Positions 1,925 to 37,023 are shown, numbered from the stretch's first letter. The stretch is 64,000 nt of DNA from Candidatus Binatia bacterium (GCA_035566895.1 DATMQA010000007.1:54395-118394); one strand, 5' to 3'. Notes: generated by a model not told the origin, from the letters alone. Translations and numbers: made by a program.

Positions 1925-3232
1925 TTACTCTCCCACCTTGAGCAGGATGCCTTGACCTGGCATCAACCAGAATCCGTCCTTGGCTATTTCGAAGGAGAGT
2001 AGCGCGCCGTCGACGGCGGATACAAGTTTGAGGTTGGCGCCGCTCGATTTGGTTTTGAGGCTCAGGTTGGCGGAGTGCTCGAGGTTGAGATTGACCAGCA
2101 GGGCGTAGGTTTCGGCGTCACGACCCTTGAACTCGCCCACCATCAGAGGGGACGAGCAAGTAACCGTGTCAATGACCTGCCCCGGCAAGAGCGGCAGGCC
2201 ATCCACAACGGGTGGTGAGGAAAAGAAAACACCCGTCGAGGAAAGCCGGCACAGGACCGGGGCGAGGGCCGCGACCTGCCGGTTCACTTCGCGGAGGCAA
2301 CTCCAGGTCGGGGTCTTGTTTCCGGCGGCATCGATTGGAGCGTACTGGTAGCCGCGTCCATAAAAGGTGTACCAAGTCACGCCGCGAAATCCAGCCGCGA
2401 GCGTGGTGTACGCCTGGAGCAAAAGGTTCGCCGGCGAGGGGATGGGGTGTTTGGGTTGGAGTTGATTGGCGGCGACGATGTGCAGATAGGGCAAATGGTG
2501 CTCCTGGGCGACGCGGCGCACCTCCAGCATATTGCGGAAGTAACTGGCCGCCAAACTGCGGTTCTGCAAATCATCAGAATATTGGACCATATAATTGTCA
2601 TAGCTGAGGAGTTGTGGCTTAACGTCGGCAATGAAGCGTTCGAGGTATTCAGTGTAGTTGGTGGTACCAAGCTGTGACCGGTCCGGCGCGCCCAGAGTTG
2701 CGTAGTCGGGAAACAGGTTGATGTAGGCTAGTTTTCCGGGCGCGTATTTCTTGACTGCCGCGACCGCTTTTCCCAACGCTGGAAAATCGCTGAGGCCTGG
2801 CTCGTCCATAATGAAGTAGCCCCTCAAGGCAATGTTCGAGCCGCCGGCCTTGACCATAGCCCGGATGCGGCTATTGATTTCCTCATCGGCAAGGTTCTTC
2901 CATTCGCTCTGGTACTTCAAAGGGAGCACGCCATCACCGGAAGGAAGCAGAAACGCGCCCAGGCCCAGCTTGCGGCACTTGGGCAGGTGCTTGGGCCGGA
3001 CAAAGCCCGCCATGTTGAAATGGCACTCGGCGATGCTTTCTAACCCGTTGACCTCGGAGTCGTGCGCCTTGCCGTCCCAGCCCTCCAGCGGGTCCCAAGG
3101 CAGGATGGGGAAAAATTCAGGCTGCGTGATGTCGCTGGAAGCCAGCTTGTCGGTTGCCTTCGTCGCTGGAAGGAAAACCAGGAGAATCAGGCCGGCCACA
3201 AGGAGGGTGCGCTTCTTCGGGAGGATTTGCAT
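1925..3232 (-). CDS. secreted hypothetical protein, possibly a glycoside-hydrolase-like TIM barrel
   Basis: 435-aa ORF with a signal peptide (LLVAGLILLVFLPATKA). The segment YFIMDEPG...YINLFPDYA resembles GH-type barrels. No firm family assignment. Confidence 0.55.
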   Translation of the reverse strand: MQILPKKRTLLVAGLILLVFLPATKATDKLASSDITQPEFFPILPWDPLEGWDGKAHDSEVNGLESIAECHFNMAGFVRPKHLPKCRKLGLGAFLLPSGDGVLPLKYQSEWKNLADEEINSRIRAMVKAGGSNIALRGYFIMDEPGLSDFPALGKAVAAVKKYAPGKLAYINLFPDYATLGAPDRSQLGTTNYTEYLERFIADVKPQLLSYDNYMVQYSDDLQNRSLAASYFRNMLEVRRVAQEHHLPYLHIVAANQLQPKHPIPSPANLLLQAYTTLAAGFRGVTWYTFYGRGYQYAPIDAAGNKTPTWSCLREVNRQVAALAPVLCRLSSTGVFFSSPPVVDGLPLLPGQVIDTVTCSSPLMVGEFKGRDAETYALLVNLNLEHSANLSLKTKSSGANLKLVSAVDGALLSFEIAKDGFWLMPGQGILLKVGE

Positions 3233-3350
3233 GGCCTCGTTTTATCACACGCAAATACTGGTGTCACTCGCCGGCTCGGGTCCAAAGAGTAAGCCTGCTG
3301 GCAGGGACGAAGGCGCACTCCACACGCTTCGCGCGGTTTGGTAAGACTGT

Positions 3351-4148
3351 TTACGGAAAGGACTGGATTACCGTCAGGTTGGGAGTTCTTCCCGGGGCGT
3401 TGACGAACAAAATGGGTTGAGTGAGCCTAACCGAGTAAGGTGCGCGGACCGGATAAAGCCCGCCTGGAGCCAGGGGTGGCTGGCTTCGCTGACCCGCGCC
3501 GTTTACCGCATCGTCCGAGACGCCGAGCACAGTTCCCGTCACCTCAATCGGCACGGCAGCCGCAGTGTCGGATGGCACAATCACCAGCCCGGAAGCCTGA
3601 CTTTTTGTTTCATTTTTAGCGTCATCGCCGGAGGGTAAAATCAACGGGAGCGCGGGTTCAAACGGAAGGGATGCGGTGGCGGCCAAGGGTTGCGGGCCCG
3701 AAGCGATCTCGAAGTCATGCTCCATCATGGCCGAAATCGCCTCATCGCAAACGCCCAGGTCGCGCAATTGGACGATCTGGTCGGCGCCCAAATTGAAGGT
3801 GCCCGCGGAATCGATGAAAGAAAGCATTACCCGGTCCGGTATGCCGGCCTGCGCCAGTTTCAGTATTTCTGTAAACCAGACTGAGACATAGGGTTTTGGG
3901 GGCACGGCAGCGCGGTTCACTCCGGCAGCGCCCAGGACAGGGGAAGTTGGTTTTGAAAGCAGTGCCGGCGAAACATTTGGCGCTGGCAGAGTCGCATTAG
4001 TCACCGGCGGCCCGGGGTGCATGGCCCCGGTTACATAGAGAGGGTTGGGCGTCGAGGTGGTCTGCTCCTCTTGGGCCGCGCTGGCGGAAACAATCGCCAA
4101 TGCGAGCACCAGCCCGGGAATCCAGCTTGCCAACATTTGCGTTTTCAT
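3351..4148 (-). CDS. secreted hypothetical protein
   Basis: ORF track 3351..4187. The likely start is ATG at 4148 (MKTQMLASWIPGLVLALAIVSASAAQ, signal peptide). Confidence 0.55.
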   Translation of the reverse strand: MKTQMLASWIPGLVLALAIVSASAAQEEQTTSTPNPLYVTGAMHPGPPVTNATLPAPNVSPALLSKPTSPVLGAAGVNRAAVPPKPYVSVWFTEILKLAQAGIPDRVMLSFIDSAGTFNLGADQIVQLRDLGVCDEAISAMMEHDFEIASGPQPLAATASLPFEPALPLILPSGDDAKNETKSQASGLVIVPSDTAAAVPIEVTGTVLGVSDDAVNGAGQRSQPPLAPGGLYPVRAPYSVRLTQPILFVNAPGRTPNLTVIQSFP

Positions 4149-4260
4149 AATGGCCTCATGCTGCTCTGCGCTGCCCGCTACACCCACTGACTCGAAATCA
4201 CCCGGCCATATTCAAAGTCCCCGTGGACACAGGCTTCGAGTCTTCACGGAGCCAGCCGCT

Positions 4261-5142
4261 TCACTTAGTCTTGGGCTTGGGGGGCTTGGGGGGCGGCGGT
4301 TTGCGAATCTCGGCATCGAACGTGCCGGCGACGAAACTCTTGGACTCGTCCGGCAGGGCGATAAACAGCTTGCCGGTGATGCGGCCATTCGCCGCGGGGC
4401 CAAAGGCTATCTTTAGGGCGTAGCCGTTGGGGATGTTTTGATTAACACCTTTGTTCCGGTCGTCGGTCCAATGCAAGGTGACTTTCGGCAAAGGCGGCAC
4501 GCGCTCCGGGGTTACCTCGAGAGTTTTGCCGCTCAATTCCTCTCCCAGCTTGGCGAAGAAAACAATGTTGATGCGCAAATCCTGCGAAGTTCGGCCCTGG
4601 CGCAGCCCAAGGTTCCCACCCTGCAACGAGGCTCGCTCACAAAGAAACCCGCCGCCGTGAATGCTGCCGGCAGCGACCTCATCCGGCACGATGGCATTGG
4701 TCAGGTCCAGGGTCCAACTCGTGTTGGTTGGAACCGGATGCGTTACCAGAGGCACCGCCGGCTTGGCGGCCAGATCATTCGTCACCTGTGTTGTGGACTT
4801 GGCCGGACCGAAAAGTTTGCCGCGCAACAGGAAAACCGCTCCGCCCACACCCAATAAGCAAACCACCAGCAGAACGGCGGGAACAATCGAATGTCGGCGG
4901 GGGGTGAGAACCCCCGAATCGAACAGCGTTGCCGTTGGCAATGGCCGGGGTTTATCGGCCTGCGCAGCCGAAAGGATAAACTTCGAGTCACCGTCGGTGG
5001 GCGCCTGGGGGACGATGATTTTGCGGAAGCAGGTGGGGCATTCCAATTTGGTCCCGCTCGCGCTGGCGGCAGCGGTGATGTGCTGCCCGCAGTTCGGACA
5101 CGCAAATTTGAATTCGCCCATCGGTTTGGCAAACCATTCCAC
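4261..5142 (-). CDS. zinc-ribbon membrane protein, hypothetical
   Basis: N-terminal CPNCGQ...CPTC zinc ribbon, one TM helix (IVPAVLLVVCLLGVGGAVFLL) and a lysine/proline-rich C-terminus. Confidence 0.6.
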   Translation of the reverse strand: MEWFAKPMGEFKFACPNCGQHITAAASASGTKLECPTCFRKIIVPQAPTDGDSKFILSAAQADKPRPLPTATLFDSGVLTPRRHSIVPAVLLVVCLLGVGGAVFLLRGKLFGPAKSTTQVTNDLAAKPAVPLVTHPVPTNTSWTLDLTNAIVPDEVAAGSIHGGGFLCERASLQGGNLGLRQGRTSQDLRINIVFFAKLGEELSGKTLEVTPERVPPLPKVTLHWTDDRNKGVNQNIPNGYALKIAFGPAANGRITGKLFIALPDESKSFVAGTFDAEIRKPPPPKPPKPKTK

Positions 5143-19682: not shown

Positions 19683-21881
19683 TTACGGCAGCTCGGACGC
19701 GCGGTAGAAACGATATGGGAAATTGCTCGCGCTGGAATCGAGCAGGAAAAACAGGTTGGACGGGGCGACATTTGTGTTTAACGAGAGCCAGTTCGAGAAA
19801 TCCGTCGTCGCTTGGAAGACGTAGGTTTTGCCCGCCAAACCGGATAACTGCGGCTGGAATTGATGGTTGCTCAGATAGGTCCAGGACGTGAACCGCACCG
19901 GCGGCCGAATCGTGAACACACCATTCGTGGCCGCACTGTTGCTAAACCCCGGCTTGAAGGCCTTGGCGGTTACCGTGGCGCTATTCGTCAGGGTGAACGG
20001 CCCCGAATAAGGCAGCGAGTTCGTTGTCGGAATCGAGTTATCCAGCGTGTAATAAATCGCCGCTCCTGGGGTGGCATCGGTGAACGTCACGGTAACCGAA
20101 CTGAAGAATGTGCCGCCGTTTGGGGAAATGACGGGCACAGCCGCGATCGTGGAGCCGTACACGGTCAGTGCCGATTGGCCGCCAACATAGACCTTGCCAT
20201 TGGCAACGACAGGGAAGGTGAACTTGACAGCCTCCGGCCCCTGGTCGCGGCCGCCGGGGGCCTGGTTGCTGTTGTAGAGTTCCGTGGCGAGTTGGGCGGC
20301 ATCATAGGCGTGCAACACCGCCGCGCCATTATATTGCAGGATCCACACGATTCCATTGGCCGCGCCGTTGGCGGAGATGGCAGGTGTAGCGCCGGGATAC
20401 CCGAAGGTGATGGAGGACTGGCCAACGAGCGACAGCAGACCATTGGAAAAGATGAAACTCTTCAGGTTGTCGCCGGCGCCCGCGTAATAGATTTGGCTGT
20501 TAAAGTATGCGGGTGGACCAAATGCCCCATATACCGAACCGACCGCTGCGGGCAGGGTCTGCACGATATTGTCAGTATTTTGATTGAAATGCCCCATATT
20601 ATCCCGATCGAGGAGGTAAATTTTGCCTGCCTTTCCGCAACCCACCAGCAGATGCGGATGCCCGGGGCTGCCGACCGAATCAGGCAGGACGATAACGCCA
20701 GAGGAGCCGAGATCGAGGTCCGAGTTGTTTAAGTTGTTCTGATCAAAGGGGGTGAAGTAATCCACAAGCCTAAGGCCGGGGCTGTTGGTGAGTTTGAAGA
20801 AGGAATCTCCATAGTTCGAGTTCGTAGGGAAGCCACTGGCGTTCAGAGTGGTATCGAAGGTCCCGTTTCCAGTAACGGCGTAAATGTTTCCCTGCCCATC
20901 CGCGGCCGGGCCCCCGCCGCTGTGCCAAATTCCACCGCCGCCTCCATTGGGAGTCGAATTGTAAACCGTAGCCAAGGTGAGAGTTTGGGCGTCGTAGCCG
21001 AGCAGCCAACCGTGAAAAGGCCCGTTATCTCCATGCGAGGCGAACGCGATATAGACGATGCCGTTGAGCAGCAGCAATCCTGGCCGATTCAGTTGCCGCA
21101 GCGCATTGAATTTAACCACCCCGCCAATATTGCCGTCGCCGGTGCCCGGCACCGACGGCCCTGACACGTAGATGTAACTGGTATTAGTGTAGATCGTATC
21201 CGCGATCACCACCGGTCCGCCGAATTTTTCCGCTCCGCTCGTCACGTCCAGCGCATGCAGTCGGTGTACGCAGTGCGTCGCGCCGCTGACAATCTCTTTG
21301 GTCTTGGCCTCGACATAAATGGCGCCGCTGTTCGGGTCAATCACCGGCGTGCTGGTCACGCCAATCTCCGGTGTGATGTCGGACGAGGCGACATCGCCGC
21401 TGGGAACGGTCGTTACTCCTGCGCCATTCAGAAAGCTCACTTTCCAGAGGGGAGCGCCGTCGGCACCGCTGTTATCGTCGGCATCGAAGGCATAGACGCT
21501 GTCATGCTCGGTAACCACGAAGACGACGTTGTGGAGGCCTTTGCCGGGGATCGGAACGTTGGTCAGGACCAGCGGTTGGCCGTAAACCTGGCCGTCCAAC
21601 GCCTGGCTGAAGAGTTTGCCGAAAGTGCTGACATTGATGTTGCCGGGCGTCAGTATCGTTTCGTTGGTGTTTTGGCCTGTCCGCGCGTTGTCGTTGTGGT
21701 AAGTCAGAACTTGGGTTTGGCTGCGGCCACCGACAATGCTCAGGCAAAGCCCGGCGAGCAAGCACAGGGACGGGTTGGGTGAAGTGCATCGCCTGACCGA
21801 CCTAAATCGGCCGAGCCACAATTTGCCGTCATCCGGCACGCGAGAGGTGAGTGTTGAGCTATTCTCGCTCGGGCCGGGCAT
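19683..21881 (-). CDS. secreted PQQ-like beta-propeller protein with a chitobiase-type Ig domain and a C-terminal FYR-P module
   Basis: YHNDNARTGQN...GQVYGQPLV...VFVVTEHDSVYAFDADD (propeller), AAIYYTLDNS..P...S..Y.GPF (Ig), and a tail ending YRFYRASELP-stop. The start is uncertain (ATG 21881; track 22085). Confidence 0.7.
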   Translation of the reverse strand: MPGPSENSSTLTSRVPDDGKLWLGRFRSVRRCTSPNPSLCLLAGLCLSIVGGRSQTQVLTYHNDNARTGQNTNETILTPGNINVSTFGKLFSQALDGQVYGQPLVLTNVPIPGKGLHNVVFVVTEHDSVYAFDADDNSGADGAPLWKVSFLNGAGVTTVPSGDVASSDITPEIGVTSTPVIDPNSGAIYVEAKTKEIVSGATHCVHRLHALDVTSGAEKFGGPVVIADTIYTNTSYIYVSGPSVPGTGDGNIGGVVKFNALRQLNRPGLLLLNGIVYIAFASHGDNGPFHGWLLGYDAQTLTLATVYNSTPNGGGGGIWHSGGGPAADGQGNIYAVTGNGTFDTTLNASGFPTNSNYGDSFFKLTNSPGLRLVDYFTPFDQNNLNNSDLDLGSSGVIVLPDSVGSPGHPHLLVGCGKAGKIYLLDRDNMGHFNQNTDNIVQTLPAAVGSVYGAFGPPAYFNSQIYYAGAGDNLKSFIFSNGLLSLVGQSSITFGYPGATPAISANGAANGIVWILQYNGAAVLHAYDAAQLATELYNSNQAPGGRDQGPEAVKFTFPVVANGKVYVGGQSALTVYGSTIAAVPVISPNGGTFFSSVTVTFTDATPGAAIYYTLDNSIPTTNSLPYSGPFTLTNSATVTAKAFKPGFSNSAATNGVFTIRPPVRFTSWTYLSNHQFQPQLSGLAGKTYVFQATTDFSNWLSLNTNVAPSNLFFLLDSSASNFPYRFYRASELP

Positions 21882-22171
21882 GGTGGCAACATAACGTGGA
21901 GGGATCGGCAAGGCAAGAAAGGTTCCGTTGGGGGCTGGTCGGCGGCGCGGAGACGCCCGGGCGACGAACCACCAGTTCGAGCGGCAGGGCGCCCTGGCGC
22001 ACGCCGCGCATTTTGTTGGAGTGCCAGCCATAGTAACGGACCAAGCAACTGGCGGTTGTCCAGCTTTCTTCGAAGTTGGTTCCAACCTACCGCTTGCAGT
22101 CGTTCTGTGCTATAGTTCCGCGGGTTCAGGGGAAGGCAACAAGTTCGATTGCCGGGGGCGAGAGGCCGACA

Positions 22172-22990
22172 ATGAAAGATTTCATCCACATTGGAATAGC
22201 CGCTGCGACTTGTGCCATCGGAGCCGCTCTTGCACTGTCGGCGGCCACAGCGAGGGCCCAGACGAACCTGGTCGTCAACGGGAGTTTTGAGGCGGGGCCG
22301 GCTGGCCAGGGGAAATTTACGGGCTGGGGGTGGCTTGGTCCCTCGGACAACTTCAGCGACTACGGCGTTATCCAGTCAACAGCTTCTCCCGACGTGGCCG
22401 AGCAGGGCAATTATTACGCCTACTTTCGCGGACATCCGACCGACAATTCGCAGGATTGCCTCGGCACCACCGTCAGTCTGAAACCCGGCGCGCTGTACAA
22501 CATCGGCTACTATCTGGGCACGGACGGCTCGACGCTGGGCACGGGCGCCGCGATGTGGGTGGTGATCGGCACGTCGTTTGGCATCGACCTGAGCCAGGAC
22601 ATCATGTTGACCGCCTATTTCCCAAATTCCTCCAACGCCCTGCCTTACCAGGAGTTCAGCACCAACTACGTGGCCACGACGGCTTCGCCGATCCTGTCGT
22701 TTCACGGAATTAACGCCACCAACGGATTGGCCGCGACCAATGCAATCCTGCTGGACAGCGTGTGGGTGACGTTGATTTATCCGCCGCTGAACCTGAGCCT
22801 GTCCCCTTCCAACCAGCTTGTCTTCACCTGGCCCTACACGAACAGCCCGTACCGGCTGCAAGCCAATGCTTCGCTCACCACCACGAACTGGATTACCTTG
22901 ACGAATGTGCCTGCAAACGCCGGCACGAACAACAGGATTGTGCTGCCCGTGGCTGCGGGCCGTCAGTTTTACCGGCTGACGCTGCCGTAG
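22172..22990 (+). CDS. secreted jelly-roll/CBM-like protein with a C-terminal FYR-P module
   Basis: MKDFIHIGIAAATCAIGAALALSAATARAQ signal peptide, NLVVNGSFE opening typical of DUF642/CBM-like folds, and a tail ending RQFYRLTLP-stop. Confidence 0.7.
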   Translation: MKDFIHIGIAAATCAIGAALALSAATARAQTNLVVNGSFEAGPAGQGKFTGWGWLGPSDNFSDYGVIQSTASPDVAEQGNYYAYFRGHPTDNSQDCLGTTVSLKPGALYNIGYYLGTDGSTLGTGAAMWVVIGTSFGIDLSQDIMLTAYFPNSSNALPYQEFSTNYVATTASPILSFHGINATNGLAATNAILLDSVWVTLIYPPLNLSLSPSNQLVFTWPYTNSPYRLQANASLTTTNWITLTNVPANAGTNNRIVLPVAAGRQFYRLTLP

Positions 22991-23040: not shown

Positions 23041-24435
23041 TCAAGTGTCCTCTAGTTTTCTTCCTCGGCGGAAAAATCTGATCATCAAATATCCGAGCCA
23101 AACCAGCGCCACGACGGCAAAAGCCCTGACCATCGTGCGCCGACGGGCCTCTCGTTGGGCATCCTGGAGCCGTCTAAGGGTTTTGCGCGATTCTGTGTCT
23201 GTCAGTCCAGCCGATTGAATTTTGGCGGCAACCCTCTCTGCGACCTCCAGTGAACCCGGAAATGACTCGTCCGTCCAGAACCGGCGGCTCTTGCGGAAAT
23301 AGCCAGTTTCATCAAGCAGTTCCACCGGAAACATATAGGAGGAGCCTACGGTGTCTTCGTCCATCAGCTTGAATGAGCCGTCGGCGTTTAATGTTTCGCT
23401 CAAGCAGAAGGTTATCATCTGGCGCATTTCCGCGCGCGCGAGTTCACGCTGGTTCTCGCTCATGGATGGCCAGCAGATGCGAAACAGCCGCACCACGGCG
23501 TAGTTGTGGTGATTGGATGGTTTGCCTTCTTCCAGCCAGCCATACGGATACTCGAGCTCTTTGAACGCCAGCGTGGTGCGAATCATCTCCGGAATATGTT
23601 TAAGGTTATTGTGGCGATAAGAGATGATGTGGAATGTCACGCTCAAGTCGGACGTTTTCCGTATCTCGCCGTTCTCTTGCTTGTACCAGGCGCCCCAGTA
23701 ACCCGTCTCCGGGTTCTGCCAATGATCATCCTCATACTCCAGCAACGCCTGCTTCAGCCCTGGAGCGAACGGATAGACATCTCCCAGTTCGCCTTGGATG
23801 AGCCGTTCGATCGCCGTGATGGCGAGGTTGAGTTCGAATCGATTGTCAATCCCCTTATGACGGATATCTGAAATCAGAACCGAGTCCATGTAGTTGCGCA
23901 ATTTCTCCGGGCTGTTGATCCGGTCCAGGAGCTTGAGCGGAAACTTCGGTCGCTCTCCACGGCTGGAGCGGTCTTCGAGCTCCTCCAAAGTTGAATCCAG
24001 TTTCAGGAACCACGCTTCACTGCAATGATCGTAACTGCCATCGGCCTCGACCTGCTCGCGGGCATCCGCCGGATCGGCGGGACGCGCGAGCATTTCGCGA
24101 AGGTCATGCAAGCGCCCCTCGAGGCGCTGCCACTGTGCTGAATAGGTAAGCCACCGCGCTTCGAGGAAAATTTGCCGGGAGCAGGGGGTTGCCCGTCCGC
24201 CTGCCGTTTGACGGGCTAGTTCCAATTGTAACTCCCGCAACTCCTTCGTGTATTGCCGTCGCTTTTCGAGAAATTGAGGATCGAACGCCAAAAAATCCCT
24301 GGTGGTGTCATAACCAAAGAGGCTGCGCGATGCGCCACGTGACGTCGGCGCCGTTTGAGCCTTCGCGTCAAACACGCACAACACCGCGGCCATCGCGAGG
24401 AATTTTACCCATGCGTGCCGGATGGAGCGCGTCAT
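23041..24435 (-). CDS. hypothetical secreted protein with a C-terminal TM anchor
   Basis: Signal peptide MTRSIRHAWVKFLAMAAVLCVFDAKAQ and C-terminal TM FAVVALVWLGYLMIRFF. No family recognised. Confidence 0.55.
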   Translation of the reverse strand: MTRSIRHAWVKFLAMAAVLCVFDAKAQTAPTSRGASRSLFGYDTTRDFLAFDPQFLEKRRQYTKELRELQLELARQTAGGRATPCSRQIFLEARWLTYSAQWQRLEGRLHDLREMLARPADPADAREQVEADGSYDHCSEAWFLKLDSTLEELEDRSSRGERPKFPLKLLDRINSPEKLRNYMDSVLISDIRHKGIDNRFELNLAITAIERLIQGELGDVYPFAPGLKQALLEYEDDHWQNPETGYWGAWYKQENGEIRKTSDLSVTFHIISYRHNNLKHIPEMIRTTLAFKELEYPYGWLEEGKPSNHHNYAVVRLFRICWPSMSENQRELARAEMRQMITFCLSETLNADGSFKLMDEDTVGSSYMFPVELLDETGYFRKSRRFWTDESFPGSLEVAERVAAKIQSAGLTDTESRKTLRRLQDAQREARRRTMVRAFAVVALVWLGYLMIRFFRRGRKLEDT

Positions 24436-24690
24436 GTGCCGGGCAGCTTGGCAAGCTTTCGTGCGTAGCTCAACAGGATTCACCGGAGGCGTCAAACTCC
24501 CGGTCGAGGTCGCGGGGCAACTCAACCGCATAGCCTGGCCGAAAGCTGTCCTGCGCACACCCGACTTCGTGGTCTATGCTGTGGACTTCGAACTTGCGGG
24601 CCTGCGGAAGAACCTGAAGCGAATCTTGTCGCCAGACAAACTGGCCGCCCTCAAAGCTGCAGGCTTGTTTTAAGCACAACAGTAATAATA

Positions 24691-25872
24691 TTACCACGTT
24701 TCGGGGTGGGGCTGGTGATCGTTGTTCCAACGCGAGCGGGCAGGAATGTCCTCGACGATCCAACGCGCCTGGCGGGACCATTGAACGTGGGCGTCGCAGA
24801 ACACCATGTTGGCGCCGCCGGAATGACGCGACGGGACTACGCAGTCAACGCTTCCGAGAGGTTGTTTGTGCCATGGGCTGATAATGGTGCACCAAAGCTG
24901 GCTGGGCAATTGAAGGTCGCCCAGTTCAATCATGTCCGCGGGGCAGGTCAGGGCGGTTGAGCGGATGAAATGGGCTTTGCCGAAGCCGAGGCCAAGGTTG
25001 CTTTCCATGTGAACGTAAATCTGGCTGCTGCCGCCGGCGTCGTAGCCGAAGGAATCGGATTTCAACGATTTGTTCCAGTTCAAATGCGGCTCGTATTCGG
25101 GACACGAGAAGATGTCCGAATGCGGGCCTACGTACGGCTGGATGCGGACGGTCCAGGAATTAGTCGAGGGAAAGTCCCAAGGGAAATGATTGGTGGCGAT
25201 CAGCGCCTCACCGGCACCGGGCAGGAAGCCGAAATCCGATTCATACATCGCCAGGGCATGACCCATCTGCCGAAGGTTATTTTTGCACGTGGTCGTTCGC
25301 CCCCTGGTTTTGGCCGCGGCAAGGCTGGGGAGCAGCAGTGAGGCGAGCAGACCCATGATGGCGAGCACCATCAATAATTCGAGTAGCGTGAAGCCGCTCT
25401 CGGGTTTTTGAGGCGGGTTTTCCGGTTCTCTCGCCAATTGCACGCGCAGCTCGTGAAGTTCTTTGCGCAGCTCGGCGATTTGGCGGGGCATTTCGAGCAA
25501 GGCTTGAGACCGGGCTTCCCGCCGCGCGCGGACAAACTCCCAGCGGTAGCGGAAGACATAGATCGCTGAGAGCAGCAGCGCCGTCAGCGGCGAAAGGATG
25601 ATGACCAAGGCAAGAAGCTTGACGAGCCATTCTGGGAAATTGACCCCGCGGCCCATGGTGAAAAGCGCCAAGGCATAGAGGGCGATAAACAGCGTTGCGC
25701 AACCGGCGGCAACGATGATGGTGATTCGCCGCGCGCGTTTCTCTTGTTGTTGTGCGCCGTCGAGACGTTCGATGACTTTGCGCCGGTGTTCCTCGAACTC
25801 TTTGGAGTTCAGGAGGCTGTCCTGTGCGAAGAGCAAATTGAGATAGTCATCGGACGGTGTGGATTCTTTCAT
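24691..25872 (-). CDS. anti-sigma-position membrane protein fused to a prepilin-type (DUF1559 / H-X9-D) pseudopilin
   Basis: ATGA overlap with the ECF sigma stop. It has two TM helices and a coiled coil, then G|FTLLELLMVLAIMGLLASLLLP at residue 160/161, and a C-terminal HSGGANMVFCDAH motif. Confidence 0.75.
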   Translation of the reverse strand: MKESTPSDDYLNLLFAQDSLLNSKEFEEHRRKVIERLDGAQQQEKRARRITIIVAAGCATLFIALYALALFTMGRGVNFPEWLVKLLALVIILSPLTALLLSAIYVFRYRWEFVRARREARSQALLEMPRQIAELRKELHELRVQLAREPENPPQKPESGFTLLELLMVLAIMGLLASLLLPSLAAAKTRGRTTTCKNNLRQMGHALAMYESDFGFLPGAGEALIATNHFPWDFPSTNSWTVRIQPYVGPHSDIFSCPEYEPHLNWNKSLKSDSFGYDAGGSSQIYVHMESNLGLGFGKAHFIRSTALTCPADMIELGDLQLPSQLWCTIISPWHKQPLGSVDCVVPSRHSGGANMVFCDAHVQWSRQARWIVEDIPARSRWNNDHQPHPETW

Positions 25873-26444
25873 AAACGTTTCCTTTCAACGATGTTGCGCA
25901 GAGCAATCCGGGCATGATACAGCCGGCTTTTTACCGTGCCGGGCAGACAATCCAGGACGGCAGCCACTTCGTGAGTGGAGAGGTCGCGCAGGTAATGGAG
26001 GACAAGGATCTCCCGGTGATGAGGCGGCAGAATTTCCAACGCCTTATGCAAGGCTTCGGCACCCAGGGCGATGTCGCCGTCGGCTGCTGCAGGTTCGCTC
26101 CAGGTATCGACGAGAGACGCAGTGACTTGTTCCTGACGGATTTCGTTGCGCACAAATCGAGCCGCCTTGTGATGGGCGATGCGATAGAGCCAGGCCCGGA
26201 ACGCTTCGGGTATTTGGAGCGATTTCAATCCGCGAAATGCCTCGAGCCAGACTTCTTGATGAAGATCAAGCGCATCGTCAGCGTTTGGGACCAGACGCCG
26301 CAAGTAATAAAGCAGCGGCCTTTCGTGACGATTGAGCAGACGAACGAATGCGTCAGCGTCACCCGCCTGGGCTTCAGAAACCCAGAGGGCTTCTTCGAGT
26401 CGGCCAAGCTTTTGCTCGGGCGAACCTGTTGGGCCAGGATCCAT
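25869..26444 (-). CDS. ECF (sigma-70 family group 4) sigma factor
   Basis: Region 2 (RPLLYYLRRL..DALDLHQEVWLEAF) and region 4 (REILVLHYLRDLSTHEVAAVLDCLPGTVKSRLYHAR). The start is taken at ATG 26444. Confidence 0.9.
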   Translation of the reverse strand: MDPGPTGSPEQKLGRLEEALWVSEAQAGDADAFVRLLNRHERPLLYYLRRLVPNADDALDLHQEVWLEAFRGLKSLQIPEAFRAWLYRIAHHKAARFVRNEIRQEQVTASLVDTWSEPAAADGDIALGAEALHKALEILPPHHREILVLHYLRDLSTHEVAAVLDCLPGTVKSRLYHARIALRNIVERKRL

Positions 26445-26560
26445 CGTTTCTTTATGGTGTCCCGAAGCCGAGCAACGGTTCAAACTTTCTAACACGACAT
26501 TGGGGAATTTGGCGCCTGTTTTCCACCGGTGTGGTATATTGAGCCGGAAGGAGAAAAAAT

Positions 26561-27015: not shown

Positions 27016-27537
27016 TCATGAAATATGCTCCAGGGCGGAAACCACCCTTAACTGAGCGCGTTCTGGCCGGGCCGACAACAGTTTTCTGACCACGCAGTGC
27101 AAGTCATTCACCATGAAGGGTTTGCTCAGGAGCGCGTCCACCGGGTTCTCGGCCTCGCGACATGCCCTCGCCGAGGCAGTGATCATCAGGATTGGCACCG
27201 AGGGCGCCAATTGCTTGATTCCAACCGCAAGCTCGTTGCCTTTCATTACCGGCATCTCGAAGTCCGTAATCACAAGGTCAAACTGACCAATGGTGAAAGA
27301 TGTCAGCGCCTCGGCGCCATCGCTGGCCTCGGTGACCTGATGCCCCTCCATCTCGAGCATCATGCGGAGACACGCGCGGATAGACGCCTCGTCGTCGACG
27401 AGCAGTATTCGCCTGCCGCGAACGTCAGCCGGTTCGGCGCTCAAATCGGGGTCAATCCATGACGCTTCGGCACCTCTGGTTTGGCGCGGTTCGAAGGTGG
27501 TTAAAGCGGAATGTCTATTCTCAATCATTTGTTTCAC
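27016..27537 (-). CDS. single-domain response regulator (CheY-like receiver)
   Basis: RILLVDDE, LVITDFEMP, ILMITA and SKPF conserved receiver residues. Confidence 0.85.
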   Translation of the reverse strand: MKQMIENRHSALTTFEPRQTRGAEASWIDPDLSAEPADVRGRRILLVDDEASIRACLRMMLEMEGHQVTEASDGAEALTSFTIGQFDLVITDFEMPVMKGNELAVGIKQLAPSVPILMITASARACREAENPVDALLSKPFMVNDLHCVVRKLLSARPERAQLRVVSALEHIS

Positions 27538-28162
27538 TTCCTGCTCGTGTTGGAGAGAGCCTGGTTGGCTCCGCGCCGTTCACGGCCTTGTCTTCGGCGA
27601 CCTCCTCGGTCGCCATGGCTGCGGAGATGGTTTGCCGGTGAACTCCGAGCTTCTGCGCAGCCAGCGAAATGTTATTGCCCATAAGCTGAACTACATGCCG
27701 GATGTAGTGGTACTTGACCTCGTCCAGCACCAGGACGTCTTCCTCCCGTTGAGGCAGCAGGACATCGGGAGCGGTTTCCAATCGGCCCATCCAGCGTTTG
27801 ACGCGGTTGGCCAGCATGCCGCCCCCGATGTTCTTTTCCAAAAATTCATCCGCATCGGCCAACAGGGCATCCAGCTTCACGTTGTAGGACTTGCCGCTCA
27901 TGACGATTATCGGCATGTGCGCGGACATCGAGCGTGCGGTTCGCACAACTTCACTGGCAACATGGTCCAGAAACCAGTCCACCAGCAGGATCGAAATCTT
28001 GTTTCGCGCCAGGGCCTCGAGCGCTTCTGAAACCGAACTGGCCGTGATGCAGGAAATGCCTTCCGCTTCGATACAGTCAGTGATGTACCGCCGAGAGTCC
28101 TGGTCAGCGTCAACCACCAGCACGCGCTTTCCACCATCGAGTTTTGGTTTTTTCACATTCAT
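27521..28162 (-). CDS. response regulator with a receiver domain and a Fis-type HTH (RegA/ActR-like architecture)
   Basis: RVLVVDAD...ILLVDWFL..IIVMSG receiver, then C-terminal NISLAAQKLGVHRQTISAAM HTH. It overlaps the downstream response regulator by 17 nt. No histidine kinase is in the window. Confidence 0.8.
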   Translation of the reverse strand: MNVKKPKLDGGKRVLVVDADQDSRRYITDCIEAEGISCITASSVSEALEALARNKISILLVDWFLDHVASEVVRTARSMSAHMPIIVMSGKSYNVKLDALLADADEFLEKNIGGGMLANRVKRWMGRLETAPDVLLPQREEDVLVLDEVKYHYIRHVVQLMGNNISLAAQKLGVHRQTISAAMATEEVAEDKAVNGAEPTRLSPTRAGSETND

Positions 28163-28565: not shown

Positions 28566-29276
28566 CTATTCCCACATCTTCACGCGGTTGGGGAGCCCTT
28601 GAGGCCGCTGGCAGCGCGCCGGTGCAGGGATGGGGCGCTGGCACTGCCAGCGGTTCTCACGCAGCAGCAGGAAGCCGAGCGAAGCCGCCAACAGCAGGCT
28701 CAGCACCGCCGGCTCAGGTACCTGTAGGAGCACCTCGGCGCCGTTACCACCCCCAACGCCACTGTAGAGGTACGAGGTGTCCACCTGGTAACCGGGATAG
28801 ATGGAAGAATTGCCTTCGACTATCGCTGGAGAATCGCTGCTGACAAATCCGAAACTGAGGGATTGGCCAGGATTCAACGGCGCACTGGAGGAGGTGAATT
28901 CAATGGAATAGTCGTAGTAATAATAGTAGTTATAGTAGTAACCGGTGATCACGGAAGCCCCCCATCCTGCCGGCGCTTGAGTGCTGGTCGGGGACGAGGG
29001 CAGGAAATTGTCGCCGTTGGGCAGCCAGGCAAACCAAAAAGTCTCAATCGGACTGGTCGAAGAACCCGAATTGTTCAGCGTAATGGTGTAATCGTAAAGA
29101 CCGCCCCCAGCCGGTTGACTGCTGATCTGAGCGCTGGCGCTAATGCCTTGTGCCGGGAGCATGTCGGCCACGCCAAGAACACACCAAAGCAAACAAGCCG
29201 TTTTGAGCGCAGTTAAAAGCGTCCGGCCCTTGCTGGGCCGGGGGCCAATCGGGGTGTTTTTCGCTGTCTTTTTCAT
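28566..29276 (-). CDS. PEP-CTERM domain protein with a poly-Tyr tract
   Basis: Signal peptide, GYYYNYYYYYDYS tract, and C-terminal VPEPAVLSLLLAASLGFLLLR (PEP motif + TM + Arg). About 30 further residues follow the sorting signal. Confidence 0.75.
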   Translation of the reverse strand: MKKTAKNTPIGPRPSKGRTLLTALKTACLLWCVLGVADMLPAQGISASAQISSQPAGGGLYDYTITLNNSGSSTSPIETFWFAWLPNGDNFLPSSPTSTQAPAGWGASVITGYYYNYYYYYDYSIEFTSSSAPLNPGQSLSFGFVSSDSPAIVEGNSSIYPGYQVDTSYLYSGVGGGNGAEVLLQVPEPAVLSLLLAASLGFLLLRENRWQCQRPIPAPARCQRPQGLPNRVKMWE

Positions 29277-29449
29277 GGTTTCCAGTCTGCTTTGCATCAC
29301 GACAAAGCGGGTACTTCTACGTATGAGGGCCGACGCAGGATATTTGTTCCCCGGACAATTTTAAAACACGCCCCGCCCGCCGTCCCTTGCCAACGCGCCG
29401 TTTCATCTTGTTTGACCCGGTGGCTGCCTCCCCCCACCATCCCCCGCAC

Positions 29450-34155: not shown

Positions 34156-37023
34156 TCAAGGAACCGCTTTCAGCCGGTAAAAGGTCTGCGCCGAACCCGC
34201 GGCCGTCCCGTCGGTCCAGTCTGTGACCCCCGTTGTATTCGCAACCTGGCCAAGAGAACTCCATTCGCCGAGAACGGTCGAGGCTTGCACTTCCAGGCGC
34301 AACCCAGGCGGGCCATGCAGCCGAAGGCGCGGCGCGCCATTCATCGGCGAGACGGGCGGCTCGATCCAAACGGAAGAAAGCGGGACTTCGCGCAGCCTGT
34401 AGAAACGAGCGCCGGAAGAGGCTCCCGCATCTACAAACGTCCGCAATACCGTCGGGTTCGCTATCACCGCCAGCGTGGACCACTCCCCCAGGTTCGTCGA
34501 AACCATCACCGCAAAGAGCCGGCCCGGCATCCCGTGGAGAATCAGCCCGCACTGCCCGTTCCCCGGCCGCCCATCCAACTCCAGCCAGCTTTGGACCGGC
34601 AGCGGCTGTTGCGACTCGGCATAGACGTAAACCCCGCGGTTGGTCAGCGCCTGGAGCAGGCTGAGGTTCGGCGACCCGAGGTTCAAACTCAAATAATTCC
34701 CATTGAGGTTCACGTACGAATTCGATACAACCGCCGGCAGGGTCGCAAGATCGGTAAGCAGATTCCCGCTCACATCGAGGACTTGGATATTTGTCAGGTT
34801 CGCTAGCGCAGAAAGGTTGCTCAGCCAATCGCTTGCCAGGCCAACGGATGAGAGCCGTTGAAGTCCAGCCAGCCCAGCCAGGCTCGAGAGCCGGCAACCA
34901 TTCATGGTCAGGGAGGTCAGATTGGTCAGGCCGGCCAGTCCGTCGCAGTTCGTTACCGGGTTGTCGGACACGTCCAGAGTGTAGAGTGACCACAACCCAC
35001 CCAGTGGACTCAAATCAGAGATGTGGTTTTGACTAAGATGCAGGTAATAGAGTTGGTGCAGTCCGGACAGGCAATCGGCGTTCGTCAGCGACGCCCCCTC
35101 CAGCATCAGCTCTGTCAGATTGGTAAGCTCGCTTAAGGGCGCACAGTTGCCGATGGGCACGAGAGTGAGGTTCAGGTAAGACAAGCTGGTCAAACCCGCT
35201 AGCGGCGAAATATCTCTCAAGGGAGTGCCGGTCAGGTTCAAGTTCTGGAGGCGAGTGAGGTTGCTCAATGCCGCTATATTCGTCACGGCCGTGTAATCGA
35301 GATCGAGCGAGAACAGATTGGTCATCGACGACAACCCCGCGCAATTGAAGATCGGATTCTGGGACAGGGTCAAGTAGTTCAGGTTCGTCAAACCGGATAA
35401 GGGCGTTAGGTCGCTGAGTTGGTCCCCGTACAGGCGCGCATAGTTCAACCGGCTCATTCCGGCGAGGCACGCCGCGTCCATGGTGCCGGCATTGTCCGCG
35501 ATCAGAGTCTGGAGATTCGTCAGGCCGCCCAGGCCGGAGCAGTTGGTGATGGTGTTTTGGCTTACCGTCAGAGAAGTCAGGCCGCCCAAACCGGCCAGTG
35601 GCCCGAGATCCCCGATGCGGTTTCCGTAAAGGTTAAGGCTGCTCAGTTGGGTTAACCCTGCGAGCCCAACGATGTTCGAGAGCAAGGTTGAATTAAGGCT
35701 CAGGTTCACCAGGTTCGTCAGCCCAGCCAGCGCCGCGCAAGTGCCAACGGGATTATCGTCGGCCATCAGCGTTTGCAGCAGCGTTGCTCCCGCCAGCGGA
35801 CCAAAGTCGCCTATGTTTTGACCCGATAAGCTCAAAGCCGTGAGTTGGCTCATGCCCGCCAGGCAGTCGATATTGGTAAGCGCCGGCACAGGCGGAGGTC
35901 CTCCTGGCCGAATGATGGTGGGAAAGGCGTAGGCGTGGGTCAGATCCAGGTTTGTCAGCCCGGTCATCCCAGCAAGCGCCGAACAATCTTGCAGGAGGTT
36001 CCCATTGAGGATGAGGTTCTGTAAATTCGTCATTCCCGCCAGGGGTGACACATCCCAGACTGCCCTCCCGGTCAGGTTCAGGGAAATGAGCCTGGTCAGC
36101 CCGGAAAGGCTCCCCAGCGCGAAAGCCTTCGAGGGGTCGGCTGATTGCGGGCCCAGCAGCACGGGGGCTCTGCCATACGCGTTCAAATTGAGGTCGCTCA
36201 GGTTGGTCAACCCCGCCAGGGGCGCGCAATTTGTAATCGCGCTCCCGGCCAGATTGAGCATTTCCAGGCGGAACAGCCCCGCCAGCGGGAAGAAGTTGGT
36301 TATTCCATTGTATCGCAGGTCTAGCCACCGCAGTTCGCCCAACGCGGCAATCCAATCGAGGTTCGTTATCTGACACCCACCGAGGCCGAGATTCGTCAGG
36401 TTGACCAGGTTGGCCAGGGCGGTGCCGGTTGTAATCGGATTGCCGCTAAGGTCCAGGGATTGCAAACGGCTCAACTGCTGGAGCGGAGCGACGTTGGTCA
36501 CCTCCGTGCCCGCGAGACCCAGGCGGACCAGCGCTTGCAGGTTTGACAGGCAACTCGGATCCTCCAAAGGGGCCGCACGACCGAAGCGGGGCAAAATCGG
36601 CAGGATCGGGTATCCTAAAAGCTGAGCACCATACGGGTCCTTCAGGTCCAAACTTGTCAGGTTTGTCAATCCCGACAACGGAGTGTAGTTCGTTGTCGCA
36701 TTTCCGCTGAGGTTCAGGTTCGTCAGCCCTGTCAGTCCCGTTAGTGGCGCAAGGTCCCCCGCCGAATCGTTGCTTAAGCTCAGGCTTCCCAGATTTCTTG
36801 CCCACTCCAAGCCGGACAAACTCCTGATCCCGAGATTCGAACCGTCCAGACCGGTCAATAGGTTCAGGTCATTCGTGGTGAGGACCCCGGTCGGCTTGTT
36901 CAGCGCCGCCCGGACCGCCGATTCAAGCCTCCCATCCGCAAACTGCACCTGCGCCTGCCCCAAAGCCGTGCCGGCCATCCCGGCCAGAAAAGACAAAACC
37001 AACACGCGGCTCAAAGTTTTCAT
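34156..37023 (-). CDS. secreted leucine-rich-repeat protein with two tandem C-terminal FYR-P modules
   Basis: Signal peptide, then about 30 LRR units (L.GLTNLT.L.L..N.I.D..PLAGL), then ...ARFYRLREVP and ...QTFYRLKAVP-stop. Confidence 0.85.
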   Translation of the reverse strand: MKTLSRVLVLSFLAGMAGTALGQAQVQFADGRLESAVRAALNKPTGVLTTNDLNLLTGLDGSNLGIRSLSGLEWARNLGSLSLSNDSAGDLAPLTGLTGLTNLNLSGNATTNYTPLSGLTNLTSLDLKDPYGAQLLGYPILPILPRFGRAAPLEDPSCLSNLQALVRLGLAGTEVTNVAPLQQLSRLQSLDLSGNPITTGTALANLVNLTNLGLGGCQITNLDWIAALGELRWLDLRYNGITNFFPLAGLFRLEMLNLAGSAITNCAPLAGLTNLSDLNLNAYGRAPVLLGPQSADPSKAFALGSLSGLTRLISLNLTGRAVWDVSPLAGMTNLQNLILNGNLLQDCSALAGMTGLTNLDLTHAYAFPTIIRPGGPPPVPALTNIDCLAGMSQLTALSLSGQNIGDFGPLAGATLLQTLMADDNPVGTCAALAGLTNLVNLSLNSTLLSNIVGLAGLTQLSSLNLYGNRIGDLGPLAGLGGLTSLTVSQNTITNCSGLGGLTNLQTLIADNAGTMDAACLAGMSRLNYARLYGDQLSDLTPLSGLTNLNYLTLSQNPIFNCAGLSSMTNLFSLDLDYTAVTNIAALSNLTRLQNLNLTGTPLRDISPLAGLTSLSYLNLTLVPIGNCAPLSELTNLTELMLEGASLTNADCLSGLHQLYYLHLSQNHISDLSPLGGLWSLYTLDVSDNPVTNCDGLAGLTNLTSLTMNGCRLSSLAGLAGLQRLSSVGLASDWLSNLSALANLTNIQVLDVSGNLLTDLATLPAVVSNSYVNLNGNYLSLNLGSPNLSLLQALTNRGVYVYAESQQPLPVQSWLELDGRPGNGQCGLILHGMPGRLFAVMVSTNLGEWSTLAVIANPTVLRTFVDAGASSGARFYRLREVPLSSVWIEPPVSPMNGAPRLRLHGPPGLRLEVQASTVLGEWSSLGQVANTTGVTDWTDGTAAGSAQTFYRLKAVP

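Follow-up and report, generated by a model that had tools for sequence, protein, structure and literature searches.

A conserved fusion of an anti-sigma-position membrane protein with a DUF1559 pseudopilin, encoded behind an extracytoplasmic function sigma factor gene

The stretch of DNA analyzed here, 64,000 nucleotides (nt) assigned to a Candidatus Binatia bacterium (GCA_035566895.1, DATMQA010000007.1:54395-118394; referred to below as the window), encodes on its minus strand an extracytoplasmic function (ECF) sigma factor followed directly by a precursor protein of 393 amino acids (aa; 24691..25872, -). In this precursor, a two-transmembrane (2-TM) module at the position of an anti-sigma factor is joined in frame to a pseudopilin of the DUF1559/HX9DG type. 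The locus is probably an autoregulated three-part ECF module of Verrucomicrobiota, consisting of the sigma factor, the 2-TM anti-sigma-position protein, and a dedicated pseudopilin. The fusion is real and conserved, and the pseudopilin probably provides the membrane and periplasmic input of the anti-sigma protein.

The sigma factor gene (25869..26444, -; ATG at 26444, TGA at 25869) encodes a 191-aa ECF (group IV) protein with sigma-2 and sigma-4 domains only. Both Sigma70_r2 (55.8 bits) and Sigma70_r4_2 (48.2 bits) exceeded their Pfam cut-offs, TIGR02937 scored 79.9 against a cut-off of 42.9, and no match to region 3 was returned by the Pfam scan. Its nearest solved structure is E. coli sigma-E (1or7), and all NCBIfam equivalog and subfamily models remained below their cut-offs (best: PRK12518, 105 versus 208, and TIGR02989, 87.5 versus 124.55). 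The 191-aa call recurs by gene callers in independent assemblies. A longer open reading frame (ORF) from TTG 26570 was rejected in favor of ATG 26444, because a conserved promoter (26456..26483) sits inside it. As reported in a preliminary description of this DNA, the sigma gene overlaps the next ORF by ATGA (25869..25872, -), with the sigma TGA lying inside the ATG of the 393-aa ORF; both ORFs and the overlap are read directly from the sequence, and the Pfam domains agree. The overlap points to translational coupling of the two genes, and overlaps of 4–23 nt between sigma and module are also present in relatives.

The putative autoregulatory ECF-type promoter (26456..26483, -) comprises TTGAACC (26477-26483), a 15-nt spacer, and GACACC (26456-26461), and ends 11 nt ahead of the sigma ATG. 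It is the sole exact match to the motif in the window. Among relatives, TTGAACC-N15-RRCACY was found upstream of sigma in 9/9 related loci examined and ahead of each of the 10 sigma genes in the fused clade, where the pattern is TTTGAACC-N15-(G/A)(A/G)CAC(C/T), and variant TTGAACC...CGAC motifs occur in wider sigma relatives. Across 710 kb (the window plus loci), the strict motif was confined to those sigma-upstream sites, and the motif search of the window and these loci yielded no second sigma-dependent promoter target. A copy with one mismatch (TGAACT-N15-AACACC, 25785-25811, -), located inside the fusion ORF and within its first 30 codons, is probably due to chance, because it is not at the same place in relatives.

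The 393-aa precursor divides into six parts, all on the minus strand. Residues 1–49 (25726..25872) form cytoplasmic N-terminal helices with the motifs LLAQD and EKRARR, and represent the candidate sigma-binding part. These are followed by a predicted TM hairpin at residues 50–106 (25555..25725; hydropathy and AlphaFold2, AF2), in which TM1 and TM2 are separated by a short periplasmic loop with a W/F-P-E/D-W motif, and by a basic, charged cytoplasmic helix at residues 107–148 (25429..25554), with the motifs FRYR and PRQIxELR, which is conserved across a family of stand-alone relatives described below. A 12-residue linker (149–160; 25393..25428), identified as disordered by predicted local distance difference test (pLDDT) scores and low identity, ends in G160. 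The pilin alpha1-N helix, or TM3 (residues 161–185; 25318..25392), then begins after a predicted G160↓F161 cleavage site (the arrow marks the cut) and contains E165 as Glu+5. Residues 186–393 (24694..25317) make up the periplasmic DUF1559 pseudopilin body, recognized by the SBP_bac_10 and TIGR04294 models. The earlier account had this body end with its H-X9-D motif; the body and the motif are present (H350-X9-D360, then Ala; 24793-24825), but a conserved tail, RWNNDHQPHPETW (residues 381–393; 24694-24732), which is common to relatives, follows D360.

Profile matches across the pilin half were all above cut-off: N_methyl at residues 157–180 (28.1 bits versus 21.2), TIGR02532 at residues 159–181 (25.7 versus 16.3), SBP_bac_10/DUF1559 (PF07596) at residues 186–249 (45.9 versus 23.3), and HX9DG (TIGR04294) at residues 347–365 (30.4 versus 19). 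Three hydrophobic segments were detected in the protein, with window centers at about 58–65, 88–100, and 167–179. Averaged over 22 homologs, the count of Lys plus Arg was 9.9 in residues 1–49, 0.4 in the loop (73–82), and 12.7 in residues 107–160. Because of this distribution and the hydropathy, an N-in/out/in topology is supported, which would have the G↓F site face the cytoplasm. The AF2 model built with a 149-sequence alignment (pLDDT 89.4, replacing an earlier run on 22 sequences with pLDDT 59.9) has helices at 8–21, 24–75, 81–148, and 163–214, followed by a beta-rich body; pLDDT falls below 50 solely at residues 1–3 and 151–157, and is mostly above 90 in the pilin body. The hairpin, charged helix, prepilin site, and topology put forward in the preliminary description are thus supported by hydropathy, charge counts, and modeling alike. 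A Foldseek comparison of the full-length model with the PDB returned nothing at E ≤0.001, and long-helix proteins dominated the list. Among homologs, mean pairwise identity was highest in alpha1-N (0.60), followed by the globular pilin (0.48), the cytoplasmic helix (0.46), and the N-terminal helices (0.43), compared with 0.12 in the linker, which varies in length from 5 to 31 residues. The linker corresponds to the C-terminal end of the 2-TM protein followed by what was once a prepilin leader.

A protein search recovered about 45 full-length fused relatives (33–89% identity, 100% query coverage), and 57 fused homologs were collected in all when the protein and representative searches were combined. 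Three contigs encode the identical 393-aa protein, and at least two of these come from separate samples (a Joint Genome Institute metagenome and a Logan SRA assembly). Wherever DNA ahead of a fused locus is available, it contains a homologous ECF sigma gene directly upstream, and the remaining neighbors vary; among all module loci having enough upstream DNA, the sigma gene is directly upstream in 24/25. The expectation that related genomes would carry the same fusion beside ECF sigma genes was therefore borne out at every fused locus that could be read. Translation from an internal start at Met-128, considered previously as an alternative, was rejected: the alignment shows this position replaced by Ile, Leu, or Phe in relatives, and no conserved in-frame start codon exists among the 40 codons ahead of Phe+1 (one homolog, L004, lacks any). 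The related proposal that two separate proteins are made does not hold for the fused homologs generally, but it does describe one lineage (L007 / P0133), in which the two parts are truly split.

The junction between the halves is an intact type IV prepilin site, as first described, with the motif ESG↓FTLLE (ESG↓FTLLELLMVLAIMGLLASLLLP) and residues G160, F161, and E165. Alignment to PDB chains of mature GspG, PilA, and geopilin pairs F161 with their residue 1. The site has the hallmarks of a class III signal (a small residue at -1, Phe+1, Glu+5, and a hydrophobic helix of about 21 residues), and 160 residues including two TM helices precede it. In a motif search permitting Gly, Ala, Ser, or Cys at -1, all 57 fused proteins had Gly (36) or Ala (21) at this position, and 49/57 had Lys or Arg within -7 to -2. 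Phe+1 and Glu+5 were fixed in that search, such that invariance of F161 (+1), T162 (+2), and E165 (+5) was shown solely in the 22-sequence alignment. Ordinary DUF1559 prepilins with short leaders from the same phylum have Ala (38) more commonly than Gly (19) at -1, so the fused site matches the local peptidase specificity. Prepilin leaders are 6–26 aa long and hydrophilic, and the -1 residue is critical (Berry and Pelicic review, PMC4471445). Glu5 is dispensable for cleavage and required for assembly (PMC4471445), and its invariance therefore suggests that this half of the protein continues to serve as a pilin. The pattern of conservation indicates that the prepilin site is under selection. 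Where the same module is attached to a non-pilin domain (P0154), the motif has been lost (GFASQK). The pilin half is a member of the DUF1559/H-X9-DG group, with both PF07596 and TIGR04294 above cut-off. Identity as a GspG orthologue was rejected, given a TIGR01710 score of 53 bits against a cut-off of 88.85 and a match limited to the N-terminal helix region (159–242).

The N-terminal part belongs to a family of its own. Searching a profile of residues 1–160 against 1.84 billion cluster representatives identified 181 proteins, including about a dozen fusions of 383–430 aa and more than 100 stand-alone proteins, mostly of 130–160 aa (103 full-length members, median 148 aa). Stand-alone members share the same plan of N-terminal helix, two TM helices, and cytoplasmic helix, and end where the pilin site would be. 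Public sources annotate the family as hypothetical or under mistaken names, and nothing else. Four stand-alone contexts have both upstream sigma and downstream DNA that can be read (L084, L086, L087, and L088). In all four, the 3' end of an ECF sigma gene, with a product 41–45% identical to the sigma of the window, overlaps the module gene, and no pilin gene follows in the downstream DNA examined. Residues 1 to approximately 150 thus represent an unnamed family at the classical anti-sigma position, in agreement with the placement originally suggested for this part of the protein. It is encoded at +1 of sigma, and is co-conserved and translationally coupled with it at the 24/25 loci noted above; we infer that the 2-TM module binds its sigma factor.

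Several relatives present the 2-TM module in other arrangements. In P0241 (318 aa), a Pkinase domain (116 bits) lies N-terminal to the same module (profile positions 22–141), suggesting that the module also serves as the membrane part of kinases; the layout recalls the ECF-kinase pairings known in Planctomycetes. P0154 (388 aa) combines the module with a third TM helix, which has a decayed prepilin-like start (YGFASQK, no Glu5), and a non-pilin, partly low-complexity C-terminal domain. P0245 (266 aa) contains an ECF sigma and the start of the 2-TM module in one ORF, representing a fusion, read-through, or gene-calling merge. A weaker module paralog (L092:1783-2505, -; profile 29–150) is an orphan with no sigma ahead of it, and is convergent to a fused operon. 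Two loci also have a second, unrelated sigma system a few kb from the module: an ECF sigma gene paired with a putative anti-sigma gene of the zf-HC2 type (L001:1368-2614), and a sigma gene followed by ORFs of 169 and 150 aa (L090:4541-6106).

Pilins closest to the pilin half outside the fusions (46–50% identity, with the same tail, RWNNDHQPHxETW) are encoded in unfused operons of sigma, 2-TM protein, and prepilin. The L009 operon, for example, has sigma at 2959-3543, the 2-TM protein at 3540-3971, and the prepilin at 3968-4702, with a GTGA overlap and the leader MKTGSLNSGQTSG↓FTLTE. The unfused operon of L090 / P0056 is laid out as in L009, the P0050 contig carries sigma, a 152-aa protein, and a pilin, and the split form of L007 / P0133 has a 14-nt overlap, AGGAG 7 nt ahead of the ATG, and the leader MVANNRRNG↓F. 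Across these operons, prepilin leaders are 9–20 aa long, and overlaps are GTGA/ATGA or 14 nt (4–14 nt). A single-base indel at a GTGA/ATGA overlap would be sufficient to fuse the frames. The unfused pilins interleave with fused ones in a neighbor-joining (NJ) tree, and P0058 and P0061 nest near fused pilins. Around more distant DUF1559 pilins, no sigma gene is present. Taken together, these arrangements indicate that the link between the sigma/anti-sigma pair and the pseudopilin is wider and older than the fusion, and, because the L007 / P0133 lineage is split, that covalent linkage of module and pilin is not essential. The connection to pilin biology drawn in the preliminary description accordingly extends beyond the fusion, but the part of it that cast prepilin peptidase as the releasing protease does not stand, for reasons given below.

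Based on these features, the following sequence of events can be proposed. A housekeeping prepilin peptidase would cut G160↓F161, yielding a 160-aa anti-sigma protein and a mature pseudopilin of 233 aa. Since these products match the two proteins of the unfused, translationally coupled genes, cleavage is best regarded as maturation and not as sigma release; nor would the cut be able to free sigma, because residues 1–160 keep both TM helices and all conserved cytoplasmic parts. The 2-TM protein would hold sigma at the membrane through its cytoplasmic helices (1–49 and 107–148). The least certain step is that the pseudopilin, made 1:1 with the anti-sigma protein, would stay bound to the TM hairpin via alpha1-N, and there act as the missing input, from the periplasm or the pilin pool, of a hairpin protein whose own periplasmic loop has only about 5–10 residues. 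Departure of the pseudopilin from the membrane, through assembly of a type IV filament or pseudopilus, or a ligand-induced change, may then cause the anti-sigma protein to lose its hold, and the freed sigma would re-induce the operon from TTGAACC-N15-GACACC. That the pseudopilin is probably the partner of the anti-sigma protein follows from their 1:1 production and repeated fusion. For the chain as a whole (cleavage as maturation, the 2-TM protein holding sigma, and the pseudopilin as input), we consider the chances to be about even. A more specific version is put forward tentatively, as one possibility that falls well short of even: that the pseudopilin is itself the signal, whereby its extraction from the inner membrane or its ligand occupancy is read by the 2-TM anti-sigma protein via TM contacts and sets sigma activity, each anti-sigma protein being born paired with one pseudopilin.

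Various observations weigh against this proposal. The anti-sigma role of the 2-TM module is inferred, and no anti-sigma domain (zf-HC2, RskA, RseA_N, FecR, etc.) was detected with Pfam or NCBIfam in the fusion or in 10 stand-alone relatives; comparison of the module profile with PDB sequences gave coiled-coil and TM noise only. Two sister systems (L084 and L087) have no pilin, and since they work without one, the pilin would be an add-on and not a core part. The NJ tree is rough, and is treated as such because P0061, an ordinary pilin with no sigma gene nearby, falls near the fused pilins. A Pfam scan of the 32 ORFs in the window identified no gene for type II secretion, type IV pili, or prepilin peptidase, and we know of no described case in which a prepilin site behind 160 residues that include two TM helices is cleaved. 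Moreover, the pseudopilin could be merely the output gene of sigma.

This last point leads to the best-surviving alternative, in which the 2-TM protein is the anti-sigma factor, the pseudopilin is a target gene of sigma with no regulatory role, and the fusion arose neutrally through a 1-nt indel where stop and start overlap, being tolerated because prepilin peptidase separates the products. The pseudopilin does lie behind the sole sigma-dependent promoter found, the GTGA/ATGA overlap is fusible by one indel, fused and unfused forms interconvert, and the stand-alone 2-TM relatives work without a pilin. On the other hand, coupling or fusion fixes a 1:1 ratio better suited to the partner in a complex than to an output protein, the 2-TM protein itself lacks a periplasmic domain, and the fusion has been kept over 33–89% identity, with one lineage seen split within otherwise fused genes. 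Repeated fusion of two genes is also a classic indicator of physical interaction (Rosetta-stone reasoning), which would here point to contact between module and pilin. On balance, we regard a pseudopilin that is output only as rather doubtful, while taking it seriously.

Alternatively, the precursor might never be cut, with alpha1-N acting as a third TM anchor and the DUF1559 body as the attached periplasmic sensor of a 3-TM anti-sigma factor. The module of P0154, with its third TM helix (GFASQK) and unrelated C-terminal domain, shows that other extracytoplasmic domains are possible, and one ECF group has putative anti-sigma factors with three TM helices (PMC7826278). However, a mere anchor needs none of the Gly/Ala-1, Phe+1, Thr+2, and Glu+5 that are kept in every fused protein examined, and P0154 itself illustrates decay of the motif once the pilin is replaced. 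Relatives make the same pilin as a separate, short-leader prepilin, and the linker ahead of the site is modeled as disordered and exposed. A permanently uncleaved sensor is hence unlikely.

Still less probable is the idea in the preliminary description that cleavage by prepilin peptidase, or its regulation, frees sigma, in a form of signaling by an aspartyl prepilin peptidase resembling regulated intramembrane proteolysis. In regulated intramembrane proteolysis of anti-sigma factors, a single TM helix is cut within the membrane after loss of the extracytoplasmic domain, which frees a sigma-bound fragment. The precursor described here has three TM helices, and the predicted prepilin cut would leave a 2-TM fragment in the membrane. 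The site does appear to face the cytoplasm and to follow the candidate sigma-binding helices immediately, and the new C-terminus (...ESG) could, speculatively, be a degron. Against this, the product 1–160 resembles the stand-alone (median 148 aa) and unfused proteins, necessarily active inhibitors in their own systems, and no such cut is possible in the unfused operons, where the module is otherwise the same. In addition, prepilin peptidases are constitutive maturation enzymes (PMC4471445). Finally, that a frameshift in sequencing or assembly joined two ORFs, or that the ORF is not translated as one protein, is effectively refuted by the 57 in-frame homologs, the identical protein from separate samples, amino acid conservation through both halves, and the lack of a conserved internal start, set against one lineage (L007 / P0133) with the two parts in different frames.

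In the window as a whole, profile searches found a single sigma of this kind, 2-TM module, and pilin, namely those of this operon. The gene downstream of the fusion (23041-24558, -) is a maximal ORF of 505 aa, called as 450–464 aa elsewhere, whose product begins like a signal peptide, carries a C-terminal TM helix, and matched no Pfam family; the gene is not conserved beside the module elsewhere. A search for a terminator-like site between it and the fusion gene detected none, and the RNA fold was unremarkable. Just upstream of the sigma promoter are two overlapping response-regulator genes (27016-28162, -), one encoding a 173-aa receiver-only protein and the other a 213-aa protein with a receiver and a weak Fis-type helix-turn-helix, with no histidine kinase gene adjacent. 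Another ORF (28566-29300, -) encodes a 244-aa protein with a Tyr/Asn-rich stretch (YYYNYYYYYDY), no Pfam match, and a PEP-CTERM-like sorting signal, VPEPAVLSLLLAASLGFLLLRENR, about 20 residues from the C-terminus. A secreted-looking 800-aa protein with CHB_HEX_C_1/Fn3_assoc matches (19683-22085, -) is divergent from a secreted-looking 304-aa protein with no Pfam match (22076-22990, +). Their C-terminal motifs are similar (PYRFYRASELP / RQFYRLTLP), and may be a shared sorting tag. A 955-aa leucine-rich-repeat protein (34156-37023, -; LRR_4, 193.7 bits) is of unusual size for a bacterial protein of this kind.

Comparison with characterized systems helps to place the module. The pairs RseA-sigmaE, RsiW-sigmaW, RsiP-sigmaP, and RsiV-sigmaV likewise comprise an ECF sigma gene followed by a coupled membrane protein with a cytoplasmic N-terminus. 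RseA-type pairs share the autoregulatory GAAC-type promoter, and the sigma of the window is nearest to E. coli sigma-E among solved structures. Unlike RseA-type proteins, which have one TM helix and a sensor domain, the protein here has no recognizable anti-sigma domain and consists of a 2-TM hairpin with no periplasmic domain, to which a pseudopilin is joined via a prepilin site; its predicted cut is cytoplasmic and would leave the sigma-binding part in the membrane.

With type IV pilins and pseudopilins such as GspG/PulG and PilA, the C-terminal half has in common the G/A↓FTLxE site, an alpha1-N of about 21 residues, and Glu5. It differs in that its gene lies outside any secretion or pilus gene cluster and its leader is 160 aa long with two TM helices, compared with 6–26 hydrophilic residues in known prepilins (PMC4471445). 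The pilin half belongs to the DUF1559/H-X9-DG proteins of Planctomycetes and Verrucomicrobia, and shares with them the use of Ala or Gly at -1. Ordinary members of this family are stand-alone prepilins with no sigma nearby, whereas the member described here is tied to a sigma factor. The family is large (68 paralogs in Planctopirus limnophila) and includes two essential members (PMC10632474).

The closest precedent for a pilin acting as input is pilin-pool sensing via the pilin TM helix, as for PilA-PilS in P. aeruginosa (PMC6058289) and PilA-PleC in Caulobacter (PMC7196804). In PilA-PilS/PilR, PilA-PleC/PleD, and the minor pilins with FimS/AlgR, a membrane signaling protein reads the inner-membrane pilin and adjusts transcription. 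These two-component systems rely on histidine kinases, and unlike in the present module, pilin and sensor are never fused or translationally coupled. FlgM-sigma28 follows a shared logic, in which the state of a filament machine reaches sigma via the fate of its anti-sigma partner; FlgM, however, is soluble and itself exported, acts with a different sigma family and machine, and has no homology to the module. The literature searched, which did not extend to the ECF Hub groups, contained no paper joining DUF1559 or pseudopilins with anti-sigma factors or ECF pairs. Both the unnamed anti-sigma-position family and the use of a dedicated pseudopilin in ECF signaling may therefore be new, allowing that the ECF Hub may already list them.

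Pairs of ECF sigma and anti-sigma factors constitute a major class of signal-transduction systems in bacteria, and neither the 2-TM family nor its link to a pseudopilin was encountered in the literature searched. DUF1559/HX9DG proteins are among the largest paralog families of Planctomycetes and Verrucomicrobia, for which a subfamily tied to a sigma factor offers a tractable experimental entry. The precursor also offers a natural way to test if a whole membrane protein can serve as leader for prepilin peptidases, and the fused, coupled, and split versions of the module form a ready comparative series. If the pseudopilin does act as the signal, this would be the first ECF pathway gated by the dynamics of a type IV filament subunit, and would provide a first functional handle on DUF1559; the precursor would be the first natural substrate of prepilin peptidase to have a polytopic leader of 160 aa.

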